Shown: one piece after another, positions 1 through 1,983 of the stretch
Numbering within the stretch: position 1 is the first letter of the stretch
Layout: each line of letters opens with the position of its first letter
Assembly (NCBI RefSeq): GCF_003334765.1
Contig: NZ_QOWT01000075.1
From: Escherichia coli
GTDB taxonomy: Bacteria; Pseudomonadota; Gammaproteobacteria; Enterobacterales; Enterobacteriaceae
Reading direction: 5' to 3' (one strand)
Length of the DNA: 1,983 nucleotides
Notes under the pieces: generated by a model
Databases searched by the model: none
What the model saw: only the letters and a program-made list of their open reading frames with translations
What the model was told of the DNA's origin: nothing
Translations under genes and position numbers: made by a program

Positions 1-225
1 GCTCTGTATCACTGTATTGTCTTCCGGCAACTGATGAGGGCTGGCAGAAGTCGCCGGTGTTTCGGTAGCGTCACGTTCATTCACCACGCGGAGTGAATAA
101 CCGTTTTCAGCGACTTTGTTAATCAGTTCAGCGAGCTCAATACCATCGACGTCAACGACAATGCGCCCCATGTTCAGCGCCTGCGCATTAATGCTGTCGG
201 CTTCCAGCGTCAGGGCCAGTTTCAT
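1..225 (-). CDS. yeeW: YeeW-like protein, 5' portion only (75 codons; continues beyond window start)
   Basis: Manual minus-strand translation from ATG at 225..223 gives MKLALTLEADSINAQALNMGRIVVDVDGIELAELINKVAENGYSLRVVNERDATETPATSASPHQLPEDNTVIQS with no stop up to position 1. N-terminus matches my recollection of E. coli YeeW. The ATG overlaps the toxin stop as ATGA (222..225). Possible SD GGGGG about 9 nt upstream. Not in the ORF track, presumably because it is truncated by the window edge. Confidence 0.7.
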   Translation of the reverse strand, partial: MKLALTLEADSINAQALNMGRIVVDVDGIELAELINKVAENGYSLRVVNERDATETPATSASPHQLPEDNTVIQS

Positions 226-599
226 TGTTTCGCCCCCGGATGTTTACCCAGGGTAATGTTATTTACCGTTCTGTAGTTGTCGCGTGTCATCAGGCCGGTT
301 GCCCGGCGTGCCCGGAGAATATCAATGCTGTTGATTAACTGCGACGGGGCTCCTGCGCTGAATCCCGGCTGGTCGGTACGTACCAGCGCGTATTTTTCAA
401 CGAGAAAGTTCACCGCGTCACACAGTGAAATCCCTGCCTCAATATGCTGCTCAATCACACGTTCATCAGCGAACGGTGTGTCATTCAGCGTGAGGCCATA
501 GTGCTGGTCCAGCAGTCGGGTGAGCAGTGTCTGCCAGATGGTGATGGGAGACGGGCAGCCCGATGCCTCCCGTACGTGAGTGTCGGGTAATGTATTCAT
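222..599 (-). CDS. cbtA: Type IV toxin, CbtA/YeeV/YkfI/YpjF family (inhibitor of FtsZ and MreB polymerisation)
   Basis: ORF-track protein from the internal Met: MNTLPDTHVREASGCPSPITIWQTLLTRLLDQHYGLTLNDTPFADERVIEQHIEAGISLCDAVNFLVEKYALVRTDQPGFSAGAPSQLINSIDILRARRATGLMTRDNYRTVNNITLGKHPGAKQ (125 aa), close to recalled E. coli CbtA/YkfI over most of its length. Start chosen at ATG 599..597, which sits after the antitoxin stop with a weak SD (AGAGAA); the track's 160-aa version begins at a GTG at 704 inside the antitoxin gene. Stop TGA at 222..224. Confidence 0.88.
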   Translation of the reverse strand: MNTLPDTHVREASGCPSPITIWQTLLTRLLDQHYGLTLNDTPFADERVIEQHIEAGISLCDAVNFLVEKYALVRTDQPGFSAGAPSQLINSIDILRARRATGLMTRDNYRTVNNITLGKHPGAKQ

Positions 600-645
600 C
601 TTAAGTTCTCTGTAACAGGTGGTTATAAAGGGGAGATATCCGGTG

Positions 646-1023
646 TTATACGGTGGTTGCGGGCGCTGCCGGTGTCGGATAAACAGCCAGATAAACGTAA
701 CCACAGGAGCCGAGGGTGTCGGCTTCGCAGGTCAGCCCTTTCGCATACAGTGTCACGGTATGCTGATGGCGGGGATTCAGTTCACCACTGGTGAGCATGA
801 GCTCCAGTTGTTTCATCAGCAGCGGAAAGGCCTGGTCCAGGTGGTATGCATCTGCATCGCTGAACCGGCCTCTGATACCGGCGCGGTCGGCAAGGTAATG
901 CAACCGGTTACCCTTCTGCACCAGACGTGCCCCGAAACAGGGCGTCACGGTGCAGGGCAGTCCCCACCAGAGGCGGTCGTGATTGTCGTCGGGAGGCGTT
1001 GTCCCGGGGAGTGTGTCTGACAC
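646..1023 (-). CDS. cbeA: Type IV antitoxin, CbeA/YeeU/YfjZ/YafW family
   Basis: 125-aa translation MSDTLPGTTPPDDNHDRLWWGLPCTVTPCFGARLVQKGNRLHYLADRAGIRGRFSDADAYHLDQAFPLLMKQLELMLTSGELNPRHQHTVTLYAKGLTCEADTLGSCGYVYLAVYPTPAAPATTV matches recalled YeeU/CbeA closely. Start codon is GTG (plus 1021..1023 is cac), preceded by GAGGA at 1031..1035. Stop TAA at 646..648. Lies directly upstream of the toxin, as expected for this pair. Confidence 0.88.
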   Translation of the reverse strand: MSDTLPGTTPPDDNHDRLWWGLPCTVTPCFGARLVQKGNRLHYLADRAGIRGRFSDADAYHLDQAFPLLMKQLELMLTSGELNPRHQHTVTLYAKGLTCEADTLGSCGYVYLAVYPTPAAPATTV

Positions 1024-1030
1024 GATAAAG

Positions 1031-1035
1031 TCCTC
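1031..1035 (-). promoter_or_regulatory. Shine-Dalgarno GAGGA for the GTG-initiated antitoxin gene
   Basis: Plus 1031..1035 is tcctc, i.e. GAGGA on the minus strand, about 7 nt upstream of GTG at 1023..1021. Confidence 0.6.
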
Positions 1036-1072
1036 ACAGAAAATCGGTTAAGAATGGTCCGGTAGTGGCGAT

Positions 1073-1091
1073 AATTCTGCTCATCAGAATT
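1073..1091. repeat. Perfect 7-bp inverted repeat with 5-nt loop (AATTCTG ctcat CAGAATT) in the yeeT-cbeA intergenic region
   Basis: Read directly from plus 1073..1091. It sits about 50-70 nt upstream of the antitoxin start. No U-tract follows on the transcribed strand, so it is not a classic intrinsic terminator. Confidence 0.6.
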
Positions 1092-1102
1092 CCCTTCCAG
1101 AC

Positions 1103-1324
1103 TCAGTTCAGGGTGACGCTCATCAGCCGGACATACGGACCAAAACTGTCCTTACGGCGTTCTGCAAACACAGCCAGTACACCGGGAATATCCTGCACTT
1201 CACGGCCGGTATATGTATCCGTGCTACCGTGCCAGCGGTATTTACCGGTACAGAACGGAAAAAGACGGGATGCAGGATGCTGACGGTGAATACGCATGGC
1301 TTCACCACGGGTGATGATTTTCAT
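1103..1324 (-). CDS. yeeT: DUF987-family small protein (YeeT/YpjJ/YkfH-like), function unknown
   Basis: 73-aa translation MKIITRGEAMRIHRQHPASRLFPFCTGKYRWHGSTDTYTGREVQDIPGVLAVFAERRKDSFGPYVRLMSVTLN matches recalled E. coli YeeT. ATG at 1324..1322 with a canonical AGGAGG SD at 1334..1339 (9-nt spacer). Stop TGA at 1103..1105. Conserved position between the RadC-like gene and the antitoxin. Confidence 0.85.
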   Translation of the reverse strand: MKIITRGEAMRIHRQHPASRLFPFCTGKYRWHGSTDTYTGREVQDIPGVLAVFAERRKDSFGPYVRLMSVTLN

Positions 1325-1333
1325 GAGAATAGT

Positions 1334-1339
1334 CCTCCT
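1334..1339 (-). promoter_or_regulatory. Shine-Dalgarno AGGAGG for yeeT
   Basis: Plus 1334..1339 is cctcct, i.e. AGGAGG on the minus strand, 9 nt upstream of the yeeT ATG. Confidence 0.75.
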
Positions 1340-1396
1340 GAATGTGAAAGTAAGAAACAGCTGAGAAAGAGAAACTGAAGTGATATGAAGGTGATT

Positions 1397-1408
1397 GTGA
1401 CGGTGACG
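1397..1408. repeat. Tandem hexamer GTGACG x2 (minus strand CGTCAC CGTCAC) just downstream of the RadC-like stop
   Basis: Plus 1397..1408 is gtgacggtgacg. On the minus strand TCAC recurs four times within about 30 nt (CGTCACCGTCACAATCACCTTCATATCAC). Confidence 0.5.
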
Positions 1409-1410
1409 GG

Positions 1411-1887
1411 TTAAAGCAGACCGTGTTCCGCAAAGGAGAAAACCTGGCTGCCACCGACTATCAGATGGTCCGGTACCCGGATATCAACCAGGGCCAGTGC
1501 CTGTACCAGACGCTCAGTGATAAGGCGGTCTGCCTTGCTGGGGGGGACTTCACCGGACGGGTGATTGTGCGCCAGCACCACGGCAGCGGCATTGTGGTAC
1601 AGGGCGCGTTTAATCACTTCCCGGGGATGGACTTCCGTACGGTTGATGGTGCCGGTGAAGAGGGTTTCACCGGCAATCAGCTGATTCTGGTTGTTCAGAT
1701 ACAGCACCCGGAACTCTTCACGCTCCAGTCCCGCCATGTTCAGAATCAGCCATTCCCGTGCCGCATGCGTGGAGGTGAAGGCCACGCCGGGTTCATGAAG
1801 ATGGCGGTCCAGGGTTTTCAGGGCCCGCTGAATGAGGCTGCGCTCGCCGGGTGTCATCTCTCCGGGCAGAAAGGAAAGTTGTTGCAT
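1411..1887 (-). CDS. yeeS: RadC-like JAB/JAMM-domain protein (YeeS/YfjY/YkfG family; historically mislabelled DNA repair protein RadC)
   Basis: Translation MQQLSFLPGEMTPGERSLIQRALKTLDRHLHEPGVAFTSTHAAREWLILNMAGLEREEFRVLYLNNQNQLIAGETLFTGTINRTEVHPREVIKRALYHNAAAVVLAHNHPSGEVPPSKADRLITERLVQALALVDIRVPDHLIVGGSQVFSFAEHGLL (158 aa) contains the JAMM signature H-x-H-x7-S-x2-D (HNHPSGEVPPSKAD, encoded at 1528..1569). Start set at ATG 1887..1885, which has GGAGAG 9 nt upstream; the track's longer ORF starts at ATG 1902..1900, which has no SD and abuts the upstream stop. Stop TAA at 1411..1413. Confidence 0.88.
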   Translation of the reverse strand: MQQLSFLPGEMTPGERSLIQRALKTLDRHLHEPGVAFTSTHAAREWLILNMAGLEREEFRVLYLNNQNQLIAGETLFTGTINRTEVHPREVIKRALYHNAAAVVLAHNHPSGEVPPSKADRLITERLVQALALVDIRVPDHLIVGGSQVFSFAEHGLL

Positions 1888-1894
1888 TGTGCTT

Positions 1895-1900
1895 CTCTCC
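1895..1900 (-). promoter_or_regulatory. Shine-Dalgarno GGAGAG for the RadC-like gene, lying within the first-ATG codons
   Basis: Minus strand reads TGA ATG GAG AGA AGC ACA ATG; GGAGAG sits 9 nt upstream of the ATG at 1887. Confidence 0.55.
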
Positions 1901-1902
1901 AT

Positions 1903-1983
1903 TCAATCGATGATGCGCATAATGGCGCTGCATTCCGGATGCTGCAGGGCGTAATCCCGCAGCCGGTAATAATGGACCGTCAT
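1903..1983 (-). CDS. 3' end of upstream gene (26 codons plus stop); possibly a KlcA/ArdB-family antirestriction protein (YfjX/YafX-like) by synteny
   Basis: Minus-strand frame reads ...MTVHYYRLRDYALQHPECSAIMRIID then TGA at 1905..1903, with no internal stop back to the window edge. In CP4-57 and CP4-6 type cassettes the gene immediately upstream of the RadC-like gene is an antirestriction protein, but in CP4-44 it is yeeR, so the product is uncertain. Confidence is for a real coding 3' end, not for the product. Confidence 0.5.
   Translation of the reverse strand: MTVHYYRLRDYALQHPECSAIMRIID

Follow-up and report, generated by a model that had tools for sequence, protein, structure and literature searches.

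We analyzed a 1,983-nucleotide stretch of Escherichia coli DNA (assembly GCF_003334765.1, contig NZ_QOWT01000075.1; hereafter the window, meaning the whole stretch at its full length) that carries a six-gene cassette around the toxin-antitoxin (TA) pair CbtA/CbeA, and we consider it probable that this cassette is an element-level establishment-and-maintenance operon inherited from the backbone of a conjugative element, either a plasmid or an integrative and conjugative element. The cassette as such is already a well-known, widely annotated, many-copy E. coli island operon, and its operon status is in the literature. On our reading, the window would be the promoter-distal body of one operon—(DUF932)-ArdB-RadC-like JAB-DUF987-CbeA-CbtA-YeeW'/DUF957, then DUF4942—with transcription driven by a control region that precedes the antirestriction gene and lies outside the window. 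ArdB would counter type I restriction on entry, protecting the incoming element DNA; the RadC-like protein would be an active metallo-hydrolase aiding establishment, either as a protease (for which LfgB is a precedent) or on nucleic acid (as predicted by the Aravind group); and CbeA/CbtA would ride on upstream transcription as an addiction module stabilizing the island. DUF987, YeeW/DUF957 and DUF4942 would be optional accessories, probably acting on host factors or DNA.

All of the coding capacity of the window lies on the minus strand, in six reading frames whose identity and order (antirestriction 3' end, RadC-like JAB, DUF987, CbeA, CbtA, YeeW) are those listed in an earlier note made from the sequence alone, and protein searches placed the products in the YeeS/YeeT/YeeU/YeeV/YeeW families (TIGR00608, PF06174, PF06154, PF06755, PF25638), as that note had proposed. 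The full antirestriction protein matched PF03230 (1e-36), PDB 2WJ9 (1e-106), KlcA 2KMG (3e-22) and a PHROG anti-restriction family (4.5e-63), and the 2WJ9 structure is that of a near-identical ArdB. Both the 2WJ9 protein and KlcA reportedly block type I restriction in vivo, according to the 2010 structure paper. The RadC-like protein scored 147.8 bits against TIGR00608 (curated cut-off 133.85) and matched PDB 2QLC (6e-25); the DUF987 product covered the full PF06174 model (3e-39, 1-65/65), and its gene is preceded by a strong Shine-Dalgarno motif, AGGAGG. CbeA matched PF06154 (8.8e-55) and the structures 2INW (4.5e-84) and 2H28 (YeeU, 1.6e-76), as well as YfjZ (2JN7/2EA9); CbtA matched the whole of PF06755 (6.2e-62, 1-112/112); and the yeeW-like product matched PF25638 (DUF5983_N) over residues 4-57 (1.2e-27). 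With cbeA directly upstream of cbtA on the same strand, the pair has the composition and layout of the type IV CbtA/CbeA system, for whose K-12 homologues two sources (PMC5624674, PMC5371832) describe inhibition of FtsZ and MreB by CbtA and its counteraction by CbeA, an antitoxin type that acts without binding the toxin. The intergenic gaps from ArdB through RadC, DUF987, cbeA and cbtA to yeeW measure 15, 86, 79, 46 and -4 nt, the last because the yeeW-like ATG overlaps the cbtA stop as ATGA. An NCBIfam scan matched nothing beyond RadC, and an Rfam search of both strands at E ≤ 1 gave no match.

Co-inheritance was followed across Enterobacterales with an alignment of 12 diverse CbtA toxins (A2) as anchor and a collection holding one genome per species. 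This yielded 80 CbtA loci in genera from Escherichia to Yersinia, Pectobacterium and Edwardsiella, at which cassette genes were scored by tblastn with variants from E. coli and plasmids as queries; the loci were selected via CbtA peptide patterns and all come from one bacterial order, and small diverged open reading frames (ORFs) could be missed. Not one of 607 cassette-gene hits lay on the opposite strand. Upstream of CbtA, at the 71 loci whose flank reached 3.5 kb or more, we found RadC at 69 (97%), CbeA at 68 (96%), ArdB at 56 (79%), DUF987 at 50 (70%), DUF932 at 37 (52%) and DUF905 at 24 (34%); downstream, DUF4942 was present at 41 of 67 such loci (61%), DUF5983_N at 28 (42%), DUF5983_C at 25 (37%) and DUF957 at 17 (25%). 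Linkage to CbtA thus descends from RadC and CbeA, which are equal, through ArdB, far below them, to DUF987, DUF5983 and DUF957, and ArdB, DUF987, DUF5983 and DUF957 appear, from gene content, to be dispensable to the cassette. The absence of DUF987 is real, since RadC ends about 18 nt before cbeA in the loci that lack it. The earlier statement that the partner genes are almost always co-inherited with the TA pair therefore holds for RadC but not for DUF987, DUF5983/YeeW (about 40%) or DUF957. The RadC-CbtA linkage also runs one way: the plasmid collection has 2,331 records with RadC-like genes, of which 1,650 (71%) are conjugative, as against 66 with CbtA and 58 with DUF987.

Several loci depart from the standard arrangement. 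In Yersinia artesiana (L072) and Citrobacter sp. JGM124 (L082), a RadC-like gene stands directly upstream of CbtA with no detectable CbeA, and at the former RadC ends about 43 nt before CbtA. Two Yokenella regensburgei loci (L013, L019) have tandem duplicated CbtA genes, and one from Salmonella diarizonae (L022) has two adjacent CbeA genes, all in otherwise standard cassettes. Contigs labeled Collinsella, Lachnospiraceae and Chryseobacterium (L007, L009, L035, L036) also carry the Enterobacterales CbtA cassette, with CbtA identities to the query of 92% (L007), 85% (L009) and 64-67% (L035/L036); these are most likely contamination from binning or mixed cultures.

The strength of the RadC linkage raises the alternative that the TA pair is really a three-component toxin system, in which the RadC-like JAB is a working partner of CbeA/CbtA, for instance a protease acting on antitoxin or toxin, and supplies the type IV activation route. 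RadC is as frequent as the antitoxin itself; loss of ArdB, DUF987 or DUF5983 is frequent, and some cassettes are pared down to RadC-CbeA-CbtA(-DUF4942); two loci keep RadC and CbtA without detectable CbeA; autoregulation is absent for toxin and antitoxin alike, with the route of activation left undefined (PMC5371832); and LfgB, a RadC-like protein, is reported to degrade an antitoxin (PMC10846083). Nevertheless we regard this alternative as unlikely, given that the linkage is one-way, that co-expressing five genes produced the same toxicity as the TA pair alone, with toxin neutralization unchanged by the three upstream genes (PMC5371832), and that the sampled loci represent one Enterobacterales island and plasmid backbone lineage, for which descent and dependence on upstream transcription suffice. 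A stricter version, with RadC as an obligatory third component controlling antitoxin or toxin turnover and DUF987 as a separate host-takeover or anti-defense factor with its own fold, also strikes us as improbable; if true, it would explain how a non-autoregulated type IV system is activated. That RadC is tied to CbtA as tightly as the antitoxin is the one lead here worth an experiment. Under the establishment-and-maintenance reading, it is the lack of autoregulation that would make CbeA/CbtA depend on upstream transcription.

The earlier suggestion that tight spacing and a common strand mark a single transcriptional unit is plausible for the window copy. Between DUF932 and the end of DUF957 we detected no terminator-like hairpin on the coding strand, and the strong ones in the region fall after IrmA, DUF905, DUF957 and DUF4942; the cassette keeps to one strand in 80 species; and paralogous five-gene blocks are treated as operons (PMC5371832, PMC10846083), as the 042 cassette genes are treated as one putative unit (PMC6480617). 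Outside the window, DUF932 and the antirestriction gene are separated by 302 nt that hold no credible ORF (L001 19307-19607) and are probably the operon control region; for the paralogous CP4-57 operon, MqsA binding is reported 245-252 bp ahead of the corresponding start codon, that of lfgA (PMC10846083). RNA folding of the three spacers within the window revealed nothing unusual, and we set aside as consensus noise a pair of promoter-like sites on the antisense strand of the DUF987-cbeA spacer.

The window matches chromosomes of E. coli 55989, 042, O104:H4 outbreak strains and others at 100% identity, and related copies occupy 14,050 places spread over 4,942 of the 5,426 complete E. coli genomes (3 per genome at the median, 15 at most), in agreement with the literature and with the earlier description of a stereotyped accessory module of CP4-44/CP4-57/CP4-6-like islands. 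In both 55989 and 042 the neighborhood comprises type VI secretion system (T6SS) genes, hha, an IS1 fragment, a GTPase, Ag43, a YeeR-like membrane protein, and then IrmA, DUF905 and DUF932, followed by the window genes, DUF957 and DUF4942. The two genomes are nearly identical up to L001 23240, with 34 mismatches over the upstream 20 kb, and diverge at 23241, directly after a 22-nt repeat (L001 23219-23240, TTCGATTCCGAGTCCGGCACCA) that reproduces the 3' end of tRNA-Phe with one G missing. Past the repeat, 55989 continues with yghD/gsp (the pheV site) and 042 with cadC (the pheU site), and the other end of the island in 55989 holds an intact pheV tRNA-Phe with a tyrosine integrase 197 nt further on. 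These flanks provide the mobile-element hallmarks that the earlier note had anticipated: a tRNA and integrase at one end, a direct repeat of the tRNA 3' end at the other, and the same element at two chromosomal sites. The island measures 110,434 bp, with 1,257 bp between the low end of the window and the right end of the island, and only one further block separates the window from the attR-type end of what is the enteroaggregative E. coli T6SS/Pic/Ag43 island. A search for the tRNA-Phe 3' end that tolerated 3 mismatches but no gaps came up empty because of the 1-nt deletion in the repeat, and it was the comparison of 55989 with 042 that found it. The cassette is among the most repeated accessory blocks in E. 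coli; it ends major pathogenicity islands and rides on IncHI resistance plasmids.

The ends of the island show further features. The right-end repeat lacks one G in both 55989 (pheV) and 042 (pheU), and a hairpin that follows the pheV tRNA in 55989 (L090 11842-11960) is almost the same as the hairpin after the repeat at the 042 pheU end, so that the element seems to carry a pheU-type terminator, hinting at movement between the two tRNA-Phe sites. Near the integrase end stands a cluster of genes for a SNF2-related protein, an AAA ATPase, an S8 peptidase, a DNA methyltransferase and a DEAD/DEAH helicase (L090 15588-26351, corresponding to NC_011748 3343587-3354350) which looks like a defense system, and the island also carries pic and two T6SS clusters.

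Several observations weigh against an establishment-and-maintenance operon of conjugative origin. No transfer genes, origin of transfer (oriT), relaxase, ssb/psiB, Frpo or other single-stranded DNA promoter were seen near the cassette, although no dedicated search was made. With no transfer genes or oriT beside the cassette, and with an island that is not, to our knowledge, self-transmissible, "leading region" is an analogy here and not a demonstrated position. No PADLOC defense model matched any of 8 proteins, the DUF987 and YeeW folds gave no functional lead, a promoter scan called no sigma-70-like promoter on the coding strand upstream and no promoter-like site on that strand in the window, and promoter-like sites overall did not exceed chance (4 found, 5.4 expected). 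The conserved linkage could reflect backbone descent rather than joint function, and the unchanged toxicity on co-expression of the three upstream genes (PMC5371832) counts here as well. Finally, the sole experimental study of a paralogous operon attributes to that operon a part in host stress involving MqsA and RpoS (PMC10846083).

That work supplies a second alternative, in which the cassette is a domesticated host stress operon kept for host benefit: MqsA represses it, and under oxidative, acid or heat stress the RadC-like protease degrades MqsA so that rpoS is derepressed. The CP4-57 genes yfjXY-ypjJ-yfjZF, renamed lfgABCDE in 2024 and repressed by MqsA, are induced in single cells under H2O2; deletion of lfgB causes H2O2 sensitivity that can be complemented; and LfgB (YfjY, RadC-like), which supports survival of H2O2, acid and heat, is reported as a protease that degrades MqsA in vitro (PMC10846083, which also cites earlier work describing a mutator phenotype on overproduction). 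The JAMM site retained by the RadC-like protein of the window would suit such a role, as would the lowered H2O2 resistance seen on deleting the three toxins (PMC5371832). LfgB was, however, very poorly soluble and was incubated overnight, and the authors acknowledge problems of solubility and purity and do not strictly exclude contaminating proteases (PMC10846083); yfjY (lfgB) is still uncharacterized in EcoCyc (PMC11551758); the MqsA site is reported for CP4-57, and the corresponding region lies outside the window; and a cassette found on IncHI conjugative plasmids, in 80 species and at up to 15 places per E. coli genome fits element-level selection better than one host regulon. We accordingly hold a host stress operon to be a poor candidate for the window copy.

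Other published work bears on individual partner genes. In a 2023 preprint, relaxed BLAST from FsoA led to YeeT, YpjJ and YkfH as antirepressor candidates, which neither derepressed dicBp nor caused filamentation, a negative result for them as DicA antirepressors. Cre fusions of CbeA, YfjZ and YagB can pass an F-type type IV secretion system (PMC11288057), and a 2026 paper describes adjacency of DUF3085 and RadC and a predicted complex between the two. The earlier note held that the RadC-like, DUF987 and YeeW genes have no established function; the 2024 EcoCyc y-ome agrees, listing yeeS, yeeT, yeeW, ykfH, ypjJ and yfjY (lfgB) as uncharacterized (PMC11551758), but the statement overlooks the LfgB protease, the antirepressor tests of DUF987 proteins and the co-expression study (PMC5371832). 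The window itself adds nothing new on the function of these partner genes. The role in establishment or anti-defense that the same note suggested is a reasonable inference that fits the plasmid and phage contexts.

Table 1. Features of the window and of related loci. Window coordinates of genes run from high to low, in the direction of transcription (minus strand); coordinates with an L prefix refer to the named locus.
Feature	Coordinates	Strand	Basis or remark
Antirestriction gene, 3' end (last 26 codons + stop, 81 nt)	1983..1903	-	translation, PGAP
RadC-like JAB/MPN gene, YeeS/YkfG/YfjY=LfgB type, 158 aa	1887..1411	-	TIGR00608, PDB 2QLC
Spacer radC to DUF987, 86 nt, pyrimidine-rich	1325..1410	-	fold z-score +1.07, no unusual structure
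DUF987 gene, YeeT/YpjJ/YkfH type, 73 aa	1324..1103	-	PF06174
Spacer DUF987 to cbeA, 79 nt	1024..1102	-	ordinary hairpin, fold z-score -0.95, not above shuffles
cbeA (yeeU-type) type IV antitoxin gene, 125 aa, GTG start	1023..646	-	PF06154, PDB 2INW
Spacer cbeA to cbtA, 46 nt	600..645	-	fold z-score -0.74
cbtA (yeeV-type) toxin gene, 125 aa	599..222	-	PF06755
yeeW-like ORF, DUF5983 N-domain + short linker, cut by window edge	225..1	-	PF25638
Full ArdB/KlcA-family antirestriction gene	L001 19608-20081		rest outside window
DUF957 part of the yeeW-like ORF	L001 21984-22181		just outside window, in frame with yeeW-like ORF
Phage DUF987 example, Klebsiella phage KpV41 gp06	L003 3001-3240		

The JAMM zinc site of the RadC-like protein is, to judge from its sequence, intact. 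Its motif reads H107-x-H109-x7-S117-x2-D120, and H107, H109, D120, E57 and E90 are invariant in 73 of 73 RadC-like homologues, with S117 kept in 68. The full-length RadC equivalog NF000642 scored 158.8 bits, below its cut-off of 180, and aligned over profile positions 88-211 of 212 only, which marks the protein as a short JAB-only paralogue and not the housekeeping RadC (YicR) with its N-terminal helix-hairpin-helix part. Selection was gauged by the ratio of nonsynonymous to synonymous proportions (pN/pS), taken as medians of pairwise Nei-Gojobori values across the CbtA loci; these are uncorrected and, with pS near 0.6, approximate. Medians were 0.245 for ArdB, 0.34 for RadC, 0.147 for DUF987, 0.336 for CbeA, 0.351 for CbtA, 0.33 for both DUF5983 domains, 0.358 for DUF957 and 0.221 for DUF4942, a pattern indicating that all nine ORFs or domains evolve as coding sequence under purifying selection, with DUF987 as the most constrained gene of the cassette.

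DUF987 also occurs on its own. Homologues with 47-50% identity are present in 67 lytic T7-like Klebsiella phages of the genus Drulisvirus, about 3 kb from the left end, where the gene stands alone among small early genes with no RadC or TA genes nearby, and in a Vibrio replicon it stands alone beside a cytosine methyltransferase. Because lytic phages carry DUF987 alone among their early genes, the protein probably acts on a host target early after entry. The family is small (177 clusters at 50% identity among 1.84 billion representatives), and its AlphaFold2 model is very confident (predicted local distance difference test, pLDDT, 97.3); searches of PDB, BFVD and AFDB50 with the fold found no relatives outside the family itself, and a sequence search of PDB gave nothing below E = 0.28. 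One 159-aa protein (P0154) consists of two tandem DUF987 units, so the domain can duplicate within a single chain, and long repetitive matches (P0180, P0221, P0245) were disregarded, P0221 proving on inspection to be junk-like repeats. DUF4942, for its part, matches a PHROG DNA methyltransferase family (8e-15).

The gene at the low edge of the window had been called YeeW, and the DUF5983 N-domain is indeed there, but in a shortened allele and not in a full DUF5983 protein. The full-length reference, an E. albertii copy, encodes a DUF5983 protein of 163 aa, after which comes a distinct DUF957 gene read in another frame. Relative to this copy, the first 144 nt (91%) and the DUF957 region (89%) are homologous, and 372 nt of the full-length DUF5983 gene have been swapped for 89 unrelated nt; no Pfam match to the C-domain (PF19419) appears beyond residue 57 of the yeeW-like product. 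As a consequence of this replacement, the yeeW-like ORF in 55989 and 042 reads in frame and stop-free into DUF957, for 140 codons (L001 21759-22181), where PGAP annotates instead a DUF5983 pseudogene and a DUF957 gene. The short junction allele occurs in 3,114 of 5,426 genomes at 87-100% identity, including copies annotated yeeW at about 87%, and the full-length DUF5983 C-domain in 3,713. The CP4-44-type copy has a yeeW of just 64 aa and only a fragment of DUF957, so that in-frame continuity is not conserved; we therefore rejected a selected YeeW'-DUF957 fusion protein as unproven and claim none. The AlphaFold2 model of the 140-aa ORF is unreliable (pLDDT 49.7; predicted template-modeling score 0.41). 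A 2026 preprint describes the DUF957-like family (AntiFam ANF00264) as a real protein consistently encoded beside cbtA/cbeA.

That the whole cassette is merely a decaying remnant of a cryptic element, with hitch-hiking genes that have no current function, is very unlikely: the PGAP pseudogene flag on the yeeW-like gene, its replaced C-domain, transposase fragments and frameshifted genes elsewhere in the island, and low expression of the K-12 copies (PMC5371832) point that way, but pN/pS of 0.15-0.36 in all ORF families across genera (including DUF987, DUF5983_N and DUF957), invariant catalytic residues in the RadC-like protein, and five complete genes that are intact and 100% identical in many unrelated strains largely refute it for these genes, and the short yeeW allele is itself widespread and diverged. 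Roles for the RadC-like, DUF987 and YeeW/DUF957 proteins would show how islands establish themselves, evade restriction and resist loss.

Among known systems, the closest to the window is yeeS-yeeT-cbeA-cbtA-yeeW of CP4-44 in K-12, which has the same genes, order, strand and overlap of cbtA stop and yeeW start. Protein identities to the CP4-44-type copy are 96.8% for RadC, 93.2% for DUF987, 90.4% for CbeA, 88.1% for ArdB, 84.8% for CbtA and 72.7% for YeeW, and both carry the short yeeW allele with its "...TETPATxASPHQL" tail. The 110-kb pheV/pheU T6SS/Pic island of the window nonetheless differs from CP4-44 in element and site, and its yeeW runs stop-free into an intact DUF957 with DUF4942 next, whereas the CP4-44-type copy has a DUF957 fragment and then transposase remnants. 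The operons lfgABCDE of CP4-57 (yfjX-yfjY-ypjJ-yfjZ-ypjF) and yafX-ykfG-ykfH-yafW-ykfI of CP4-6 share the five-gene architecture near an island end and are paralogues of the window cassette; MqsA control and LfgB protease activity are reported for CP4-57 only.

On plasmids, the block ArdB-RadC-DUF987-YeeU-CbtA recurs in the order and strand of the window on the IncHI1A plasmid pNDM-CIT and on a Klebsiella pneumoniae IncFIB/HI1B plasmid, with 59-70% protein identity and genes packed much more closely, at intervals of about 10-25 nt. On the Klebsiella plasmid, DUF905 and DUF932 lie upstream, and downstream come a full-length DUF5983 and, in a different frame, a separate DUF957; pNDM-CIT alone has a DNA methyltransferase further downstream in place of DUF4942. 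A more distant likeness is found on pOXA-48 (IncL; L088 5433-10520), where DUF3085, RadC-like JAB, helix-turn-helix, DGQHR, DUF4942 and Hha-family genes lie on one strand; this cluster is without a TA pair, and the island of the window likewise carries hha and DUF4942. Finally, the anti-defense islands of plasmid leading regions (Samuel et al. 2024, PMC11541004) combine anti-restriction (klcA/ardB), methyltransferase and TA genes with small ORFs on one strand; the window cassette resembles them by gene composition alone, and it adjoins the attachment site of a tRNA island.

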